Origin: a virus
Taxonomy: Duplodnaviria; Heunggongvirae; Uroviricota; Caudoviricetes
Length of the DNA: 6,906 nucleotides
IMG/VR virus record: IMGVR_UViG_648276671_000005
Direction: 5' to 3' (one strand)
Position numbers and translations under genes: made by a program. Position 1 is the stretch's first letter, and each line of letters begins with the position of its first letter. Below, piece after piece: positions 1-6,906 of this stretch. The notes under the pieces were generated by a model. It saw only the letters and a program-made list of their open reading frames with translations, had not been told where the DNA came from and did not search any database.

Positions 1-218
1 ACGCCGTTAAGCTCAATACCATCACGGCGCATCACCTCAGCAACAACACGCGCGTAATTTTCGGCTATCACGCTGTCCGGCTGCGTGGCCTCCTGTTCGC
101 CAGCCTGCTGGCTGATTCCGGTAATACTGCGGATTATCCCGAGCGCTTCGGTCTCGGTCATGGTCATGGTCATGGTCATGGTCATGGTCATGGTCATGGT
201 CATGGTCATGGCCTCCAT
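1..218 (-). CDS. Partial CDS (3' end beyond window start) of unknown function with an N-terminal (Met-Thr)9 repeat
   Basis: Minus-strand frame is open from ATG at 216-218 to position 3 with no stop (my manual translation: MEA(MT)9ETEALGIIRSITGISQQAGEQEATQPDSVIAENYARVVAEVMRRDGIELNG...). A strong Shine-Dalgarno AAGGAGGA (complement of 231-238) lies 12 nt upstream of the ATG. Same strand as every other gene here. Not in the ORF track because it has no stop in the window. Frame choice is uncertain: five of six frames are open across the repeat. Confidence 0.4.
   Translation of the reverse strand, partial: MEAMTMTMTMTMTMTMTMTMTETEALGIIRSITGISQQAGEQEATQPDSVIAENYARVVAEVMRRDGIELNG
156..209. repeat. 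Perfect tandem hexanucleotide repeat (GGTCAT)9, i.e. (ATGACC)9 on the minus strand
   Basis: Direct reading: nine uninterrupted GGTCAT units at 156-209, flanked by GGTCTC (150-155) and GGC. Encodes (MT)9 in the favoured minus frame, (HD)9 in the ORF-track 37..315 frame, and (GH)/(VM) on the plus strand. Confidence 0.95.
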
Positions 219-454
219 AGTGATGGCGGGTCCTCCTTGTGGGGTGCCCTGCCACGGGGCGGGAGCATCGCGGAAAAAGGCTAGTTTTTGCATTTTTATT
301 CGTCATCACCACCAATGCAATATATTGATATGACTTGATGTTTTATTTTTCGGTGTCGATTTCGATTGTTTTTTGTTCATCACTGACGCATAACGCCCAC
401 CAGCGCAACGCTGAAAGCCAGTCAGTAAACTGGCTTCGGTCATTGTGCACTACG

Positions 455-998
455 TTACTTGTCTTTATCCGGCTGAAACTTATCAGGCACATTTCCGGTA
501 GTTTCCATCAGATAATCGGACAGCATTCGCGGGATGTTTTCATCAAGTTTTGTGCATGCGTTACAGGCTCTGACAACTTCTTTTTTCAGGCCATCCAGCA
601 TGACGGGGGTCATCTGTGGGAAGCTCCTTTGCATAGTAAGCGGGCAGGCTGTCCATGATTGATGAAATCTGACTCGCCAGTTTTGAAAGCGCGTACATGC
701 AAAACTCTGTATCAATCACGTCACCGCGATCGCGCTCGTTTTTAAGTTCCTGCGCCTCCGCCTGTGCTGTCAGTAATCTGATCCTGACTCGTAAGAGTTC
801 ATCATCATCAATCTCGCCTTTGTCGTTTGTAAGCTGGCTAATTGCATTGTTAACCCTATTGTCTATCACGCTGGCAACATCATAAAACGCCTCACGGCCT
901 TTACGTTCAATGGGAGTCACTCCCCACTTGTCGAATGCTGTAGCACTTACCCGGCAGCTTTGCGCCATGGTTTTTTTGTTCATCAGGTGCGATTTCAT
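455..998 (-). pseudogene. Lambda Nu1-like terminase small subunit (terS), interrupted by a +1 frameshift at a C5 run (G5 on plus strand, 605-609)
   Basis: ORF 561..1001 (N-terminal part) contains LTAQAEAQELKNERDRGDVIDTEFCMYALSKLASQISSIMDSLP, matching lambda Nu1 [45 protein letters not shown]. ORF 455..715 in the +1 frame contains MLDGLKKEVVRACNACTKLDENIPRMLSDYLMETTG, matching the Nu1 C-terminus FLKRDIIKAMNKAAALDELIPGLLSEYIEQSG. Removing one C from the run GACCCCCGTCATG joins them into an approximately 178-aa protein (Nu1 is 181 aa). Start taken at ATG 996-998 (MKSHLMNKK...); ATG at 983 is an alternative. Could be a real inactivation or a homopolymer sequencing error. Confidence 0.75.
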
Positions 999-1120
999 CA
1001 ATATCCCAACTTGGTCAAGGTTTCAGGTTGGTGTGTTGGTGTTATCTTTCCCTTTTTATTCATGGAGATAGAGCAAACAACAAAACCACCACCACCACCC
1101 TGAAAAAGCTCATAAATAGC

Positions 1121-1151
1121 GAAAAACCGCGAGGTCGCCGCCCCGTAACGG
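1121..1151. other. Lambda-type cos site (cosN core; 12-nt cohesive-end sequence GGGCGGCGACCT at 1132-1143 on the minus strand)
   Basis: Minus strand reads TTACGGGGCGGCGACCTCGCGGTTTTTCGCTATTTATGA, near-identical to the lambda cosN region GGGCGGCGACCTCGCGGGTTTTCGCTATTTATGAAAA as I recall it. It lies about 135 bp upstream of the Nu1-like gene, as in lambda where cosB separates cosN from Nu1. Confidence 0.75.
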
Positions 1152-1175
1152 GTCCATATGCCGGAAAGGACCCGT

Positions 1176-1198
1176 AAAAAAAGCCGGATTTCTCCGGC
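1176..1198 (-). terminator. Rho-independent terminator after the capsid operon
   Basis: Minus strand: GCCGGA-GAAA-TCCGGC followed by TTTTTTT (A7 at 1176-1182 on plus strand), starting 7 nt past the stop of the 137-aa gene. Confidence 0.7.
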
Positions 1199-1204
1199 CT
1201 TGTC

Positions 1205-1618
1205 TCAGATGGTTTTCAGTATGCGATCGATGTCGCCATCATCGCCCGGGTTTCTGCCAGCGTATGCCATACCAGCTGATACGGCTTTCGGGCTGTGCAT
1301 GTCCATAAAGTTTTCAAAGGCTGCGGTAAGCTCTGGTGCAACCTTCTGGCGTTCCTGCTCTATGGTCATGCTAAGGATGCTTTTAGCCGTACCAACATCG
1401 ATACAAGGCACGTTTGCCATTGCACGTAACAGCGGCTGATAGTCGCCAGATTCATCAAGCGCCATAATCGCATCAGAGCGCGGCTTGTCCTTCTCTTCCA
1501 GGCTGTTAAGTTGATATACGGCCTCGTAGGTTGATAAACCTCTGTCAGCCATTGCCCGCGCTTCGGCCTTAAATTTACTCGCCAGCGGTAGCGTCATGAT
1601 GCTTTCATTCGTTGCCAT
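1205..1618 (-). CDS. Hypothetical protein (137 aa), last gene of the capsid operon
   Basis: ORF-track ORF with SD GAGGGA 5 nt before the ATG (complement of 1619-1630), 12-nt gap after the gpD-like gene, terminator directly downstream. No family recognised by eye; no obvious match to lambda FI. Confidence 0.65.
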   Translation of the reverse strand: MATNESIMTLPLASKFKAEARAMADRGLSTYEAVYQLNSLEEKDKPRSDAIMALDESGDYQPLLRAMANVPCIDVGTAKSILSMTIEQERQKVAPELTAAFENFMDMHSPKAVSAGMAYAGRNPGDDGDIDRILKTI

Positions 1619-1630
1619 CGTTCCCTCTGC

Positions 1631-1966
1631 TTATCGGGCCAGTGGCTGAACGGATACGCCAGAACCCGCAAAGGCGGCGCATTTTTTCGCATCGGTGTCG
1701 ACGCTCTCAGGCCAGTTAACGGCGGCGATATTAAATATCCCCGTCTTATAGCACTGTGCTGATTTCTGCGTCGACGTGTCAACGGGGTACGAGGTCAGAT
1801 AAACAGCCTTGCCAGATTCCTGACCATCCCACGGCTTAAACTCGCCATTGTCCGCCAGCATCAGCGGGGTAAATTCCTGAATAACTCCAGCATCAGCGGC
1901 AAAATGTACCAGCGTCGTGGATACCTGCTGACTGCCTGCAAATAACTCAATGTATGGAGTGTTCAT
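1631..1966 (-). CDS. Head decoration protein, lambda gpD-like (111 aa)
   Basis: TPLMLADNGEFKPWDGQESGKAVYLTSYPVDTSTQKSAQCYKTGIFNIAAVNWPESVDTDAKKCAAFAGSGVSV aligns with lambda gpD [75 protein letters not shown]. Length matches gpD (110 aa). SD GGGGGA upstream. Confidence 0.8.
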   Translation of the reverse strand: MNTPYIELFAGSQQVSTTLVHFAADAGVIQEFTPLMLADNGEFKPWDGQESGKAVYLTSYPVDTSTQKSAQCYKTGIFNIAAVNWPESVDTDAKKCAAFAGSGVSVQPLAR

Positions 1967-1977
1967 AGAATCCCCCG

Positions 1978-3033
1978 TTAAGCAATTTTGACGGTAACAA
2001 ATTTGCGAATATCTGCCGGTACCGGCTGCGGTGCGCTGTGCGTCTGCACGTACTCAATCGCCGGATCGCCATCCTCAATCCAGTTTTTCGGGTAGTACAT
2101 GTTTTGCGTTGCGCCAGTTCTTACCGCTTCCGGATCCATAATCGCACCATAGGCCACCAGCCCTTTATTGTTAGTGTTGCCCAGGACAAGCAAATCAGGC
2201 TCAAGGAAATATTTTTCGGTGCCATCGCTGTCGGTGTATTTGCCGGAATAGACGATAAGGGCCAGATCACCCAGATAGCCTTTAAAGCTCACCACTTCGC
2301 CCAGGTTTTTACAGGCCAGCTCTGCGGCGGATTCTGAACCACGGGAAAGATCGTACAGTTCACGGAATTTTTTAAAGCTGCGTAACGTGCGCCATACCTC
2401 AGCGCCCATAATCATGACGTTGGCGGGGCAACCAGCCTGATCGGTGTATAGTTCGATGTCATAGATTGGATCGTGTGTTTCCTTATCTGCCTCAGACCAC
2501 TTTTTGCCCGATCCCTGCGTAATGATGTTTTTAGTCGGGATTTTCCAGTCGATTTCGTATCTATTTATTCCTTCGCCCTCAATGATGTTTTTTCCGGTCG
2601 TGACCGCATTCACCGCCAGCCATTCTATGCGAGCTTTAATAGCGTTTACCTGGCGGCGCATGTTGCCAGTAATCAGGCGCATACGGCGATAAGTTGGATC
2701 GTTAAGCTGTGCCGGATCTTCTCCAGCCATGCGCATGATGGTTTTTGATGGATCGATTTCGTGTTTTGGTTTCATGTAGCCAGGGCGGATAGTGCTTGTT
2801 TCGTACCCTTTATCGCGCTGAACCTGACTCCCCACCATAGGCGAACAAAAAGCCGACATGGTGACTTCTTCAATATCCAGGGTATCTAACATGATGTCCT
2901 GCGTGTTGAAGGTTGCCACGTTCGGGAAAAACAGCGACGTAAACAGCGGACTGAATTTAAATTCCGAAATATCCCCACGATTCAGGTACGCGAAAAGCTG
3001 GTTAGTGTTAAGTGCCGTTGCTTTGCCTGTCAT
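1978..3033 (-). CDS. Major capsid protein, lambda gpE family (351 aa)
   Basis: Co-linear similarity to lambda gpE across the whole length: FKFSPLF vs FKFDPLF; RPGYMKPKHEI vs TPGYVKPKHEV; EDPAQLNDPTYRRMR vs EDPQNLADPAYRRRR; NIITQGSGKKWSEADKETHDP vs NNITQGSGTEWSKRDKSTYDP; VSFKGYLGDLALIVYSGKY vs VSYKGMYGDVAIVVYSGQY; VLGNTNNKGLVAYG vs VLGNTQARGLRTYG; YPKNWIEDGDPAIEY vs YPKNWVTTGDPAREF. gpE is 341 aa. Confidence 0.9.
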   Translation of the reverse strand: MTGKATALNTNQLFAYLNRGDISEFKFSPLFTSLFFPNVATFNTQDIMLDTLDIEEVTMSAFCSPMVGSQVQRDKGYETSTIRPGYMKPKHEIDPSKTIMRMAGEDPAQLNDPTYRRMRLITGNMRRQVNAIKARIEWLAVNAVTTGKNIIEGEGINRYEIDWKIPTKNIITQGSGKKWSEADKETHDPIYDIELYTDQAGCPANVMIMGAEVWRTLRSFKKFRELYDLSRGSESAAELACKNLGEVVSFKGYLGDLALIVYSGKYTDSDGTEKYFLEPDLLVLGNTNNKGLVAYGAIMDPEAVRTGATQNMYYPKNWIEDGDPAIEYVQTHSAPQPVPADIRKFVTVKIA

Positions 3034-3239
3034 TATTCACCCCCATGAGTCTGATTCATGCCCAGCGCCGCGCGTAAATAGGCGCGTACCTGCCAGCCTG
3101 TTGACGGCTCAACCATCGCCAGCGGCTCAAGTCCTGCCGCAATGCCTGCTTTTACGTTCTGCTGGTGGCGTTCCTTGAGCGCCTCCACGATGTCTGGGCT
3201 TATGTAAACTGTCACCCCGCCTTTTTTCTCTTCTGCCAT
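3033..3239 (-). CDS. Small hypothetical protein (68 aa from ATG at 3239; 79 aa if the GTG at 3272 is used), translationally coupled to the capsid gene
   Basis: Its stop overlaps the gpE-like start as TAATG (3031-3035). The ORF-track start at 3272 is a GTG inside the palindrome; the internal ATG at 3237-3239 (MAEEKKGG...) has a GAGGAA SD upstream and is preferred. No recognisable family. Confidence 0.5.
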   Translation of the reverse strand: MAEEKKGGVTVYISPDIVEALKERHQQNVKAGIAAGLEPLAMVEPSTGWQVRAYLRAALGMNQTHGGE

Positions 3240-3266
3240 AGTCGGAAATTCCTCTTTGACGTTAAA

Positions 3267-3298
3267 AATCACAACTGGATGTTCATCCAGTTGTGATT
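3267..3298. promoter_or_regulatory. 32-bp perfect palindrome (15-bp arms, 2-bp centre): candidate operator or 5'-leader hairpin for the capsid operon
   Basis: AATCACAACTGGATG-TT-CATCCAGTTGTGATT; arms are exact reverse complements, checked base by base. Directly abuts and overlaps the putative -10 element and lies about 30-60 bp upstream of the first capsid-operon start codon. Confidence 0.6.
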
Positions 3299-3323
3299 AT
3301 AATCATGATTTCATTTTACGCAA
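3296..3323 (-). promoter_or_regulatory. Putative sigma70-type promoter for the capsid operon
   Basis: Minus strand: -35 TTGCGT (complement of 3318-3323), 16-nt spacer, -10 TATAAT (complement of 3296-3301); the palindrome begins at the -10 and covers the predicted start-site region. Sequence pattern only. Confidence 0.35.
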
Positions 3324-3408
3324 TAATATTGAGTTGTATTGCAAATTGTGAAATGATTTCCGGCAACAGTAGTCACCATACTGTTAGATAAAAGCCTCAT
3401 ATGCAAAA

Positions 3409-3445
3409 GCCCGATAAGACCCTCTGACCTTATCGGGCTTTTTTT
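3409..3445 (+). terminator. Rho-independent terminator oriented on the plus strand (possibly bidirectional)
   Basis: GCCCGATAAG-(10-nt loop)-CTTATCGGGC followed by TTTTTTT (3439-3445), preceded by AAAA. On the minus strand only TTTT follows the stem. Confidence 0.5.
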
Positions 3446-3452
3446 GGGGCAT

Positions 3453-3474
3453 AAAAAAGCCGGACTTCTCCGGC
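3453..3474 (-). terminator. Rho-independent terminator after the ssb operon
   Basis: Minus strand: GCCGGA-GAAG-TCCGGC followed by TTTTTT, 17 nt past the ssb stop. Nearly identical to the hairpin at 1176-1198 (one loop difference). Confidence 0.7.
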
Positions 3475-3490
3475 TTCTGTTACTCGTTGC

Positions 3491-3913
3491 TTAAAACGGT
3501 ATGTTATCCCCGTACGGATCATCGTTACCCGCCTGTTGTTTTGCCCTGTTCAGTGCGTCAGTAGCCTGCCCTTGCTGGCCTTTTTTGCCGCCCGGTCGCG
3601 CCGTTCTCGCACTGATTACGCTGTCTGCGATAACCTGCCAGCCCTGCCGCGTTTCGCCGTTCTGGCCTGTCCACTGGCTTACCTGCATGTTACCCGCCAC
3701 GCTCACCAGTTCGCCTTTGTGGTGTTTTGCCAGCGCATCGGCCTGTCTGCCAAACGCCAGGACGGATAACCACATCGTCGCCGTTCCGTCATCTGCCTGG
3801 CTGCACGGAAGGGGGACCGCCATACTAGCCATCGTCATTTGTGTACCCTTGCTGGTGGTCTTTAACTGCGGGTCAGCCACCAGCCGCCCGTAAGCCGCTA
3901 TCTGTGCTGTCAT
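3491..3913 (-). CDS. ssb: Single-stranded DNA-binding protein (SSB), 140 aa
   Basis: OB-fold region WLSVLAFGRQADALAKHHKGELVSVAGNMQVSQWTGQNGETRQGWQVIADSV resembles E. coli SSB [52 protein letters not shown]. Gly/Gln-rich linker and acidic C-terminal tail DDPYGDNIPF (compare SSB DFDDDIPF). Confidence 0.85.
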   Translation of the reverse strand: MTAQIAAYGRLVADPQLKTTSKGTQMTMASMAVPLPCSQADDGTATMWLSVLAFGRQADALAKHHKGELVSVAGNMQVSQWTGQNGETRQGWQVIADSVISARTARPGGKKGQQGQATDALNRAKQQAGNDDPYGDNIPF

Positions 3914-4155
3914 GCTGTCTGCTCTCCGGTTTTAACGTTGATGGTTGTCACCTGTTCCGCTTCGGCAATCTCCCGTTCTGTCAGCGTGGCAAAGTTTGCA
4001 GCTGCCGTTGTCATGAATGCGCTAATCAGTTCGGGATGTGCTTTCGCATATCCTTCCCCGGCGTTGCGGTCGATGATTTTTATCGACACTCTTAACCAGT
4101 GTTCCGTCAAATCAAGGGCGTGCGATTGTGATTTTTTTGTGTGCTTCGCTGTCAT
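3910..4155 (-). CDS. Hypothetical protein (81 aa), first gene of the ssb operon
   Basis: ORF-track ORF whose stop overlaps the ssb start as ATGA (3910-3913); sits directly downstream of the iteron/ori region. No family recognised. Confidence 0.55.
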   Translation of the reverse strand: MTAKHTKKSQSHALDLTEHWLRVSIKIIDRNAGEGYAKAHPELISAFMTTAAANFATLTEREIAEAEQVTTINVKTGEQTA

Positions 4156-4202: not shown

Positions 4203-4430
4203 TCACCTGTTCACCTTTTGATATTTTCCATTTAAATTCATACTGTTAAGTGGTGAACAGTTTCACAAAAACTATTCACCAACTGTTCACCACTGTTCAC
4301 CCTTGAAGCTCAATAAACAACCAAAAAGGTGAACAGTGAATAGTTTGGTGAACAGTTCATAAATAACTGTTCACCCTATAATATACTGATATAAAAGATA
4401 TTTATGACAGGGTGAACAGTGGTGAACAGT
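4203..4430. repeat. Iteron array, putative origin of replication (nine perfect 9-mers GGTGAACAG/CTGTTCACC in both orientations)
   Basis: Forward GGTGAACAG at 4252-4260, 4328-4336, 4347-4355, 4411-4419, 4421-4429; reverse CTGTTCACC at 4207-4215, 4283-4291, 4293-4301, 4367-4375; plus degenerate copies (4273-4280, 4336-4344). Flanked by an AT-rich stretch at about 4170-4250. Starts immediately after the replication-protein stop. The core TGTTCACC is, as I recall, the P4 ori/crr type I iteron bound by P4 alpha. Confidence 0.8.
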
Positions 4431-4442
4431 TATTCCATAAGT

Positions 4443-6260
4443 TTAATTTTTGCTGTCGTCATTAGTGACCGATACACATGATGGCATCCAGTCTTCTGAT
4501 TCCTCCGTCAGTGTCACGTTTGAACGCAAACCGTGCTTCGTTTTCCGTTTCATATACTCCCTGCCATATTCCGCCATTGCCCCCGGCATATCTTTACCGA
4601 AGCGCGTCAGTGTTACAGGTTTACCAAACCCATGTGCCCTCATATAAGCCAGATAGGCATGATAGAGATACCTGCGTGGGCTGAATGGCACAATTTCAGC
4701 ATTACCCACTAACAGGCCATCACACATTACCGACGCCATGAGATAGCCGCAGAAGTCCACCAGCGAATCCCCCTCTCGCTTTATCGCCAGTGCTTCTTCA
4801 GATTTCTGCTGCTCATATAACAGGCGTCTGGCTTCGTCCTGGTCAGCAAACCGTGTAAGCAGATGGCGAATCACTACCGCCAGCTCACCTTCTATTTTTT
4901 CCGCCAGCATTGGATCGCGTTCGTTCTCCGGTACAACTTCCGAAAAATTGAATATCACCCGACGACGTGAGATCCCCCCGCTGCGGTCACTGAATGACAT
5001 GGCGTTATTGTTAACCGCCAGCACTACTGCCGGAATACGCGTTGAGTAGGGGGCTTTGTGTTTCGGGTCAATTGCCACCTTGTCACCGCCTGTAATAGCC
5101 TTAATCCCTGCCCCATCACCAGCGTAGCGGGTCATATCCGGCATGATAATCAGCGAAAAGCCAACCACTAACGCGCGTTCCCTTGCATCTTCCAGCGCCT
5201 TCATGCTTGCCGATACTGTGTTGGCCTTACCCGCCAGCATGGTGCAAATCTCCGCCATCACGCTTTTACCACTTCCCCCTGGACCTGTTACCTCAATGAA
5301 TAACTGCCAGTCGTACCGGTTCGCCAGCACCATGAATAATGCAGCCAGTACGCGATCCGCCTTGCGGTCATTCTCAGCCACCGAACGGCGTAACCACTTC
5401 CAGAAATTCGGCGCATGTGTTGCCAGCGTTTCCCCCTCTGCTGGTGGGCTGAAAGGTAATTCACTGGCAATTAACAACCAGTCGTTTTTGTTATGCTCCC
5501 GAAAATTACCTGTTCTGGTATCAAATACCCCGTTACTGAATCCAATCAGGTTACGGGCTGTATTCCCCATTACAGGCAAACTTAACTTCATGGTATCGAC
5601 CGCCGATTTAATGGCGTTCTGCGAATAGCTGATCTCCGCATCAATGAAAATCTGCGCCATAGCTCGCTGTAATTCTTTATCCTGTACTGGCTCCCATACA
5701 ACGCCGTTGTAATGGTGAACAGTGTCAGAGTCAGCATGAATCGCCAGTTCACCGCCATAATGTGCCAGGAGAACTTCGCCGCGTTGACTTGCTCCCATCT
5801 GGTTAAGCGCCAGTGATGAAGCGTTATCGTCTTTTACCCGCTCTTTTTTCTTTACAGGCAGTTCAACTACCTTTTTCTTTTCCGCCAGCTCTGCCCGTTC
5901 ACGTTCCAGATATTCGCGCCAGTTCTCCCGTTTCTGGCTGTGCATTCCTTCAGGATAATAATCAGCATCCCTGACACCTGCCGCTGCCAGTTTCTGCCCG
6001 ATGGTATTAACAAGCCCCGGACGCAATAACCCCGCCTGATAGAGACGCACGCGATAGCGTCCGTCCGGTACGATTTGCAGGTTGTCCAGTTCGGCAAGTT
6101 GTTGCTCTCCAAGCCAGACAGGAGGCACGTTATCGCCAGCCAGTCGCCCGTCCTGTTCCTGCCACTGCTTCGCATGTGCCCACGCATCACTACCCGCAAA
6201 AATGATGACTTCCGTCATTTTGTCACGTGGCTGGTGTTTTAAATTTGGCGCTTTTTTCAT
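4443..6260 (-). CDS. P4 alpha-like replication protein (D5-N / SF3 helicase, putative primase-helicase and origin-binding protein), 605 aa from ATG 6260
   Basis: Walker A motif GPGGSGKS (in EVTGPGGSGKSVMAEI) and Walker B-like LVVGFSLIIMPD; size and layout typical of phage/plasmid P4-family primase-helicases; iterons immediately downstream. The ORF-track start at 6275 is GTG; the ATG at 6258-6260 (MKKAPNLKHQ...) overlaps the upstream stop as ATGA and has a GGAG SD. Confidence 0.85.
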   Translation of the reverse strand: MKKAPNLKHQPRDKMTEVIIFAGSDAWAHAKQWQEQDGRLAGDNVPPVWLGEQQLAELDNLQIVPDGRYRVRLYQAGLLRPGLVNTIGQKLAAAGVRDADYYPEGMHSQKRENWREYLERERAELAEKKKVVELPVKKKERVKDDNASSLALNQMGASQRGEVLLAHYGGELAIHADSDTVHHYNGVVWEPVQDKELQRAMAQIFIDAEISYSQNAIKSAVDTMKLSLPVMGNTARNLIGFSNGVFDTRTGNFREHNKNDWLLIASELPFSPPAEGETLATHAPNFWKWLRRSVAENDRKADRVLAALFMVLANRYDWQLFIEVTGPGGSGKSVMAEICTMLAGKANTVSASMKALEDARERALVVGFSLIIMPDMTRYAGDGAGIKAITGGDKVAIDPKHKAPYSTRIPAVVLAVNNNAMSFSDRSGGISRRRVIFNFSEVVPENERDPMLAEKIEGELAVVIRHLLTRFADQDEARRLLYEQQKSEEALAIKREGDSLVDFCGYLMASVMCDGLLVGNAEIVPFSPRRYLYHAYLAYMRAHGFGKPVTLTRFGKDMPGAMAEYGREYMKRKTKHGLRSNVTLTEESEDWMPSCVSVTNDDSKN

Positions 6261-6556
6261 TTCTGCTCTCTCCACGCGGCAATCATGTTTTTCAGTTCCT
6301 GTAGTTTTTTATCCACATTCACACGTGACACATGGTTATTTCTGGAAAGCGGGATTTCCCGCCTGAATCTGCTAATAAAGATCTCCACGTTCAGCGAACT
6401 ATGAAATGAATAGCCATCACGAATAAAATACACACGGTCAAACATTATCGATTTTACTGTTACTCTGTTGCCGTTCTTATCCCGATAAATAGCGCCGGGG
6501 ATAATTTTGGGATGTGCATAACCGCTGGCAGTCAAGCCAGATAAATACGTTCTCAT
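6257..6556 (-). CDS. Hypothetical protein (99 aa), translationally coupled to the replication gene
   Basis: ORF-track ORF with ATG at 6554-6556, SD GGGGA about 9 nt upstream; stop overlaps the replication-protein ATG (ATGA). Unknown function. Confidence 0.55.
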   Translation of the reverse strand: MRTYLSGLTASGYAHPKIIPGAIYRDKNGNRVTVKSIMFDRVYFIRDGYSFHSSLNVEIFISRFRREIPLSRNNHVSRVNVDKKLQELKNMIAAWREQK

Positions 6557-6562
6557 GATTAT

Positions 6563-6906
6563 TTATCCCCGATTTGAATCAGTATTCGCTTTCTTTATGG
6601 CATTTAATGCATCTGTGGCATTTTCAATGGTGCACCGTAACGAAATATCAAAATGTCCAAGCATTGCCAGTAACAAACCGATATTACCCATATCAATGCG
6701 CATGGCCTTTTCGTCATAGTCCTCATTTTCTGACGCATGCCACATCAGGCTACCAATTGACGCAACGGCCATTGATATATTGTCAGTCGCCCCATCCGCA
6801 GCGGAATAAACCTTTTTAGCAATATCATGCTCACAGTTAAAATGCGGATTAATCAGGTACTGGTAATTTGACATATCAGGCAAGTGGCACACCCCCTGAC
6901 GAATAC
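6563..6906 (-). CDS. Hypothetical protein, probably 5'-partial (frame open to the window edge)
   Basis: ORF-track ORF 6563..6892 begins at a GTG; the same frame has no stop through 6906, so the true start may lie beyond the window or at the internal ATG 6872-6874. Unknown function. Confidence 0.4.
   Translation of the reverse strand, partial: IRQGVCHLPDMSNYQYLINPHFNCEHDIAKKVYSAADGATDNISMAVASIGSLMWHASENEDYDEKAMRIDMGNIGLLLAMLGHFDISLRCTIENATDALNAIKKANTDSNRG

Follow-up and report, generated by a model that had tools for sequence, protein, structure and literature searches.

The stretch analysed here (the window) comprises 6,906 nucleotides (nt) of a virus of the Caudoviricetes (IMG/VR record IMGVR_UViG_648276671_000005). 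Judging from its gene content and order, the element that it comes from is an EcCICFT073-type, cos-packaged phage-inducible chromosomal island (PICI) of approximately 10 kb, whose last gene, at the left end of the window, opens with a perfect hexanucleotide array. This array, its copy number (n) in relatives and the gene that carries it are the subject of the present analysis. The left end of the window holds the following features, each given with its evidence; loci fetched for comparison carry L numbers.

1 to 218, minus strand: 5' part (72 codons) of the terminal island gene, of the phrog_1561 family, running past the left window end (translation; full open reading frame (ORF) in L001, L002 and L028; phrog_1561 match; codon tests).
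156 to 211 (units 209 to 156), minus strand: hexanucleotide array (ATGACC)9, encoding (Met-Thr)9, a hypervariable variable-number tandem repeat (VNTR) (Tandem Repeats Finder (TRF) and copy numbers in relatives).
212 to 216, minus strand: GGAGG, the probable native Shine-Dalgarno (SD) sequence (leader conserved in L003).
216 to 218, minus strand: upstream in-frame ATG (ATG-GAG-GCC), the start proposed in the initial annotation, which was made from the sequence of the window alone (sequence; the L003 homologue has CTG there).
228 to 234, plus strand: cosQ-like heptamer GGGTCCT of cos2 (alignment with the lambda end junction).
231 to 238, minus strand: AAGGAGGA, the "strong SD" of the initial annotation, overlapping cosQ2 (sequence; overlap with the GGGTCCT heptamer).
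252 to 273, plus strand: cosN-like core CCACG-GGGCGGGAGCAT-CGCGG, with a predicted 12-nt cohesive end at 257 to 268 (lambda has TTACG-GGGCGGCGACCT-CGCGG).
291 to 293, minus strand: ATG of some gene callers, with the extension MQKLAFFRDAPAPWQGTPQGGPAIT-MEA..., reading through cos2 (database versions of 126 to 133 amino acids (aa)).

The results of TRF showed a single array at window positions 156-211, with a period of 6, 9.3 copies, 100% matches, 0 indels and the consensus GGTCAT. Translation of the minus strand of window 1-218 gave MEA(MT)9ETEALGIIRSITG..., open to the left window edge, with ten in-frame ATG codons, one of them upstream of the array and nine within it. TRF, direct reading and translation agree on these points with the initial annotation, which had described a (GGTCAT)9 array, ten in-frame ATGs and an MEA(MT)9 N-terminus. 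A perfect 54-nt hexamer array in 6.9 kb cannot be due to chance, because about 48 of its bases are dependent and the probability is thus approximately 4^-48 per site.

Near-identical DNA was present in E. coli complete genomes, and extension to the left, as had been suggested, showed that the minus-strand frame runs on without an immediate stop. This frame reaches a conserved stop in L001 (NZ_CP069517), L002 (NZ_CP027219) and L028, giving an ORF with a 94-aa core that is annotated in L001 and L002 as a 94-aa hypothetical protein, and the full ORF belongs to the phrog_1561 family. Six homologues with differences in their DNA were compared, and the Met-Thr frame had 195, 157 and 375 differences at its three codon positions, an excess at the third position. 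Synonymous changes made up 253 of the 538 differing codons in this frame as opposed to 66 of 516 and 53 of 512 in the two frames shifted from it, in which the homologues contain three to seven stops. The codon-position excess, the synonymous changes and the stops in the shifted frames therefore establish the Met-Thr minus-strand frame, which the initial annotation had favoured, as the true coding frame, and every database protein of the gene uses it.

The initial annotation had also considered a His-Asp or a Gly-His repeat that would form a metal-binding tract. ORFs of 92 and 82 aa do exist mechanically in other frames, so that the true frame could in principle be His-Asp (minus-strand ORF 37-315), Gly-His or a plus-strand Val-Met ORF (85-333). 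We consider this scarcely credible, since the homologues have three to seven stops and almost only non-synonymous change in these frames, no database protein or annotation uses them, and the repeat-free homologues lack any HD or GH sequence. The His-Asp frame, the Gly-His frame and the plus-strand ORF were rejected for the stops and for the nearly exclusive non-synonymous change, and no plus-strand gene was found.

Copy number was not invariant across the relatives. Among the best 60 E. coli matches to window 1-345, for which n was deduced from span lengths, n was 3 in 30 genomes, 2 in 24, 5 in four and 6 in two, and n = 4 was found additionally among the E. coli genome matches to window 1-1100. 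Scans for exact flanks gave n = 2 (six cases), n = 3 (three), n = 4 (one) and n = 5 (one) in IMG/VR, and n = 2 (three), n = 3 (one), n = 4 (three) and n = 9 (one, locus L028) in metagenomes. The database proteins have n = 1 to 4, and the values found overall were 1, 2, 3, 4, 5, 6 and 9. Among the fetched loci, n was 2, 3, 4, 5 or 9 between flanks that are identical at 338 of 338 positions (200 upstream and 138 downstream). Because five values of n occur between identical 338-bp flanks, the tract evolves much faster than the surrounding DNA.

The L028 locus (n = 9) lies on an otherwise different mosaic island, which is 95% identical over window 1-1174 and has no match to the head module of the window. 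Its ORF is intact and encodes 113 aa from the equivalent of ATG 218. Within each near-clonal group a single value of n was found (seven assemblies named strain 167; NDM3-6; E14/E16/E32), and the tempo of change is VNTR-like rather than that of obvious high-rate phase variation. The E. coli genomes NDM2 (n = 3) and NDM5 (n = 2) carry islands at the same site in which several proteins differ, and this pair is uninformative on recent in-situ slippage because these are different island variants. In the literature library searched, neither GGTCAT nor ATGACC turned up as a locus of E. coli multiple-locus VNTR analysis (MLVA).

The distances from GGAGG (216-212) to the first three ATGs of the repeat are 2 nt (ATG #1), 8 nt (ATG #2) and 14 nt (ATG #3). 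The leader, CATCAC..TGGAGGCC followed by ATGAC, is common to the window and to the cos-less homologue of L003, whose sequence is CATCACCCTGGAGGCC-ATGACA-ATGACC-GAA with CTG replacing ATG 218, and in which the start called by the Prokaryotic Genome Annotation Pipeline (PGAP) is the ATG located 8 nt downstream of GGAGG. Because both the leader and the 8-nt spacing to the start are kept in L003, GGAGG is probably the native, conserved ribosome-binding site. The sequence AAGGAGGA (238-231), taken for a strong SD in the initial annotation, is plausible in that role behind ATG 218, which would make this ATG a second plausible start. However, it is 12-13 nt away from that codon, it is the complement of cos DNA (the plus strand at 231-238 reads TCCTCCTT and overlaps cosQ), and GGAGG offers a conserved alternative.

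At n = 2, the well-spaced ATG would be the canonical start, and at larger n ATG #2 would keep its good spacing and precede additional Met-Thr pairs. When n is 3 or more, the last ATG has no SD sequence in reach, and at n = 9 it is located 50 nt from GGAGG. Since the upstream ATGs are well placed relative to an SD and the frame after them has no stop, ribosomes starting there would translate the tract, and most likely the Met-Thr tract is translated whichever start is used, with an N-terminus of (MT)8 or MEA(MT)9 in the window.

Public gene calls for this one gene differ, with 94 aa from the last ATG (PGAP), approximately 101-113 aa from ATG 218 and 122-133 aa from ATG 293. The longest versions, which run through the cos site, predominate in metagenome-derived protein sets (database proteins P0001-P0047). 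The frame is indeed open upstream of ATG 218 up to the ATG at 293-291, but no SD was present in the sequence preceding the latter, and in the L008 prophage the same frame, likewise borne by cos DNA, terminates after 31 aa. For these two reasons the MQKLAFF... N-terminal extension was rejected as real coding sequence; ATG 293 is probably not a real start, and the extension would be cos DNA that is fortuitously open.

The repeat-free members of the family suggest how the array arose. The N-terminus MTE[AST]E was found in 63 of 120 relatives, the repeat-free pattern being MTE[A/S/T]E..L..IR (DNA ATGACAGAA). Because the repeat-free family starts with MTE.E and the phrog_1561 profile starts at that same Met, the array appears to be the amplified first two codons of the gene. 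Small N-terminal duplications occur elsewhere in the family (MTMTE, MTITE, MTRMTE), and the (MT)n extension is limited to one sublineage (MEA/MED...ETEALGIIRS). We propose that slipped-strand amplification of the gene's own ATG-ACC produced the array. The ancestral arrangement was most likely GGAGG-CC-ATGACx-ATGACC-GAx, in which one ATGACx unit made up the spacer between the SD and the start. After the expansion, ribosomes would use repeat ATG #2, 8 nt from GGAGG, or ATG 218 behind the cosQ-derived AAGGAGGA, and the length of the Met-Thr N-terminal extension would follow the copy number.

Because the unit is 6 nt long and brings its own ATG in a fixed register, slippage would keep both the frame and the distance between SD and ATG. 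Coding hexanucleotide simple sequence repeats (SSRs) change the protein sequence and not the phase of expression (PMC2651432). The effects of slippage foreseen in the initial annotation stand in that the frame is kept and the N-terminal length changes, whereas the spacing of the start codon, which had been expected to change as well, would be fixed. Its further proposal of a length-variable contingency site holds for the variation in length (n from 1 to 9, with five values between identical flanks) and lacks support as regards adaptive switching, given the 6-nt unit and the n shared by near-clones. We therefore favour, with a probability of roughly three in four, the reading in which the array is a neutral or mildly modulatory in-frame coding VNTR and not an on/off contingency switch.

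Several points weigh against this reading. The n = 9 allele was seen at just two loci, the window and L028, and the choice of start codon is deduced from spacing and conservation. A start at the last ATG, as placed by PGAP, would make the array an untranslated leader. The array RNA is also predicted to pair with itself through CAUG palindromes, burying all but the central AUG, and the folding energy of the repeat alone is 0 kcal/mol at n = 3 or fewer, -3.8 kcal/mol at n = 5, -7.2 kcal/mol at n = 6 and -12.6 kcal/mol at n = 9. Since predicted folding grows with n, copy number could affect translation, which argues against strict neutrality, and a graded effect of n on initiation through RNA structure is possible.

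The untranslated leader would place the true start at the last ATG, with a protein beginning MTETEAL... and a repeat that lengthens the 5' untranslated region. PGAP puts the start at this ATG in L001, L002, L032 and L033, and it is also where the phrog_1561 profile and the N-terminus of the family begin. However, the PGAP choice is homology-driven, the last ATG is beyond SD reach from n = 3 upwards (50 nt at n = 9), and the in-frame ATGs upstream are well spaced (8 or 12-13 nt) with no stop after them. We hold this arrangement to be improbable.

Another possibility is that the tract acts as a translational rheostat or contingency tract, in which n would tune the amount of protein or its N-terminal isoform through CAUG:CAUG folding and give heritable, reversible variants. 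The array varies far more than its flanks do, the stability of the predicted self-hairpin rises with n, and in the ensemble the first two AUGs are largely in paired states once n reaches 3. Leader and repeat together (201 nt) fold more stably than their shuffles (z = -3.15), and the multiple start codons emphasised in the initial annotation are compatible with this idea. Its basis, however, is thermodynamic prediction, in which GGAGG is approximately 80% paired at every n, so that no n-dependent change occurs at the SD. The 6-nt unit is incapable of on/off switching (PMC2651432), near-clonal genomes have the same n, and among the post-ori genes of EcCICFT073, each expressed on its own, c1503 (rppA) alone blocked lambda (PMC6739421). 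On balance we regard such tuning as unlikely. For the function of the EcCICFT073 homologue of the repeat gene, the single-gene result is weak evidence on the negative side. More doubtful again is a broader role for the start-codon repeat as a rheostat or isoform generator in cos-type PICIs, by which slippage during the replication burst would give graded progeny differing in a cos-adjacent protein that affects packaging or the interaction with the helper. A search of window 1-1300 against Rfam at permissive thresholds gave only sub-threshold chance matches.

The DNA in front of the array contains cos2, which covers approximately positions 224-335 and points rightwards to the terS-like gene. 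The GGGTCCT at 228-234 is the heptamer that in lambda starts 30 nt before the right end (lambda cosQ, which we take to be bp 48473-48479), and the spacer between cosQ and cosN is 22 nt in cos2 as compared with 23 nt in lambda. With a cosQ approximately 23 nt from the cosN core and ACG...CGCGG flanks, cos2 has the layout of a lambda-type cos site, and cleavage by terminase and packaging from it would be expected by analogy with EcCICFT073, whose two cos sites both function (PMC6092414). Matches to window 224-311 number in the hundreds in E. coli genomes, at intergenic places that carry no annotation, and the closest phage matches to cos2 are the cos regions of mEp460, phi458 and Shiga toxin (Stx) phages. 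One of the intergenic places lies between the lysis and terminase genes of the O157:H7 prophage L008, to which window 205-359 aligned, with mismatches, more closely than cos2 did to the lambda junction.

The array starts 18 nt from the cosQ heptamer, and it could thus be imagined as a non-coding, DNA-level part of the cos2 packaging signal, for terminase or integration host factor (IHF) binding or for spacing. This seems very improbable to us, since no repeat is found at cosQ in cos1 of the window, in both cos sites of EcCICFT073, in L006, in the O157 prophage L008 or in lambda, n varies from 1 to 9 while the cos2 sequence is identical, and the repeat is in phase with a conserved ORF, which it opens. 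To the left of its cosQ, at 2480-2500, L008 carries CTGAAAGCCATGACG, which resembles the (A/C)TGGAGGCCATGACC of the island (window 205-218); phage-satellite homology therefore extends barely inside the gene, into its first ATGAC. This edge of homology on the cosQ side may mark an old recombination junction.

The coding VNTR favoured here belongs to a protein of a narrow family. Its match to phrog_1561, labelled as of unknown function in PHROGs, had an E-value of 2.7e-50 and a score of 169.6 bits, and aligned residues 8-101 with positions 1-93 of the 93-position profile, which starts at the last Met-Thr. There were 912 homologues at E<=1e-3, and HMMER found only 35 relatives among 1.84 billion representatives (50% clustering), from which we conclude that the family is narrow. 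A scan of GTDB species-representative genomes found no relatives, Pfam and NCBIfam gave no match, PADLOC gave nothing meaningful, and a sequence search of the PDB gave no match even at E<=10. The AlphaFold2 model, built from a shallow alignment of 20 sequences, has three helices and a basic C-terminal tail (mean predicted local distance difference test score (pLDDT) 75.7), and Foldseek found no structural neighbour of it in the PDB or BFVD at E<=0.001. In other satellites a homologue comes right after terS without a cos (L004), after the large-terminase gene (L005 and L007), or after a lambda-type cos and without a repeat beside cosQ (L006). The gene is consistently the last one at the packaging end of the island.

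The remaining features of the window are the following.

455 to 998, minus strand: Nu1-like small-terminase (TerS-like) gene, in the position of EcCICFT073 rppA, frameshifted (PF07471, E=9.6e-23, and phrog_57, E=1.2e-51, with the intact L001 copy).
1127 to 1173, minus strand: cos1, lambda-type (sequence compared with lambda ends; same layout in EcCICFT073).
1205 to 1618, minus strand: Nu3-like scaffold (Pfam PF02924/PF03864 and phrog_1999/phrog_53 C-terminal match for the head module, 1205 to 3033).
1631 to 1966, minus strand: lambda D-like decoration protein (head module Pfam and phrog matches).
1978 to 3033, minus strand: lambda E-like major capsid protein (head module Pfam and phrog matches).
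3491 to 3913, minus strand: single-stranded DNA-binding protein (SSB) (Pfam).
3910 to 4155, minus strand: ORF of 81 aa.
Approximately 4204 to 4435: iteron-rich putative origin (approximately 10 copies of GGTGAACAGT, in both orientations, in an AT-rich gap just 3' of the primase gene).
4443 to 6275, minus strand: D5-type primase-helicase of 610 aa (D5_N, DUF5906 and Pox_D5 domains).
6257 to 6556, minus strand: DUF4222 protein (Pfam).
6563 to 6892, minus strand: ORF of 109 aa.

The cos1 site consists of cosQ GGGTCCT (1173 to 1167), a 23-nt spacer and GTTACG-GGGCGGCGACCT-CGCGG, with the cohesive end at 1143 to 1132. It lies between the scaffold gene and terS and is oriented to the terS-like gene, so that cos1 and cos2 are inverted and bracket terS. 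The predicted cohesive ends of the two sites differ, that of cos1 (GGGCGGCGACCT) being identical to lambda and that of cos2 (GGGCGGGAGCAT) resembling those of mEp460, phi458 and Stx prophages, and two unlike cos sites may let the satellite exploit two helper families. Between cosN1 and the start of terS, in what is presumed to be cosB1, an (ACC)5 / (GGT)5 run is located at 1085-1099, with CACCACCACCAC as its counterpart in EcCICFT073; the elements recognised by the packaging specificity protein of the island could include this run. A GC-rich hairpin followed by a T-run (GGCCGGAGAAATCCGGCTTTTTTT, 1176-1200, minus strand) is present after the scaffold-like gene and before cosQ1, as well as in EcCICFT073. 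From its sequence it is likely to be an intrinsic terminator that parts the head genes from the cos1-terS unit. A promoter and terminator scan gave nothing beyond the expectation from shuffles; it flagged cosN1 as "terminator-like" and did not list the 1176-1200 hairpin.

Comparison of the TerS-like gene with its counterparts in L001, L002 and L028 revealed an extra base in the window, C645 on the plus strand (GACAGCCTGCCCGC instead of GACAGCCT-CCCGC), which splits the gene into ORFs 561-1001 and 455-715. The frameshift is either that of a pseudogene or a sequencing error. The TerS-like protein had no match in the PDB, searched as a test for Rpp, and for this reason we did not file it as an Rpp.

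From the relatives, the order of the island is integrase, regulators, D5-type primase with the iteron origin, SSB, lambda E-, D- and Nu3-like head genes, cos1, the TerS-like gene, the inverted cos2, the repeat gene and att. In L001 and L030 the island lies between nfeF and tRNA-Ile/mug, with a tyrosine integrase at one end and the repeat gene at the other, approximately 10 kb away; further copies sit between cspD and clpS. These relatives, which reach outside the window, show the traits of a PICI, with an integrase at the end, one main gene direction, a length of approximately 10 kb and a fixed site. The island has two cos sites, its packaging genes are only those for capsid, decoration, scaffold-like and TerS-like proteins, and genes for a terminase large subunit, portal, tail and lysis were absent from its gene content in the window and the relatives. 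The iterons at 4204-4435 are very likely the replication origin of the island, to judge from their sequence and place, and in Gram-negative PICIs the origin is found immediately 3' of the primase or initiator gene (PMC6092414). The segment holding the head module (1175-3490) had no nucleotide match to L001, L002 or L028, while the flanking modules were 95-100% identical, a pattern that identifies these islands as mosaics with exchangeable head-gene alleles.

Of all parts of EcCICFT073-type PICIs, the one directly behind the inverted second cos is understood least, and it is there that the gene described here lies, as a conserved last ORF. If the array is a neutral VNTR, it has practical value as a fast-evolving marker with which to follow one family of E. 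coli phage satellites, and the three called starts of one gene serve as a warning for annotation. The case of AAGGAGGA illustrates that a packaging signal, when read on the opposite strand, can look like a strong ribosome-binding site. If n does tune expression, the array would be unusual because what it repeats is the initiation codon itself.

Loci with a 6-bp VNTR serve in the MLVA typing of E. coli, and replication slippage is presumed both for coding SSRs and VNTRs and for the present array. What sets the array apart from them is that its unit combines the start codon with the codon after it, that it makes up a run of potential initiation codons, and that it lies beside a cos in a satellite. 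The contingency loci of Haemophilus and Neisseria have tetranucleotide repeats just after alternative starts, such as the CAAT of lic1. They share with the array the extreme 5' position, the several ATGs and the hypervariable length. However, their units, whose length is not divisible by three, switch the frame (on/off or strong/weak), while here the frame and the spacing are invariant. Among the hallmarks of a contingency locus, we found mutation faster than that of the surroundings, with five values of n between identical 338-bp flanks, and did not find a length that switches expression by frameshift or by the spacing of the ribosome-binding site. The closer likeness is to the coding hexanucleotide SSRs of H. 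influenzae, in which a perfect 6-nt unit within an ORF likewise gains or loses dipeptides without a frameshift (PMC2651432).

At the level of the element, the closest system is EcCICFT073, the prototype Gram-negative PICI, in which both cos sites are functional and for which induction by a helper phage and high-frequency transfer have been shown (PMC6092414). By analogy, helper induction and transfer would be expected of an island of the type found in the window. EcCICFT073 has the same terminal module, with an E-like capsid gene, a D-like decoration gene, a gene for a 137-aa protein, cos, a packaging-specificity gene (rppA), an inverted cos and a homologue of the repeat gene, which is the last ORF and adjoins phoQ. 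It also has a D5-type primase with the origin 3' of the gene. The two islands differ in that the window has a Nu1-like TerS in the place of rppA, and a cos2 cohesive end (GGGCGGGAGCAT) where both cosN of EcCICFT073 are lambda-type. The EcCICFT073 homologue begins with a single ATGACA start and has no repeat. Set beside these systems, the mechanism of the array is that of an ordinary in-frame VNTR, mildly unusual in that start codon and second codon together form its unit and in that the array abuts a cos site.

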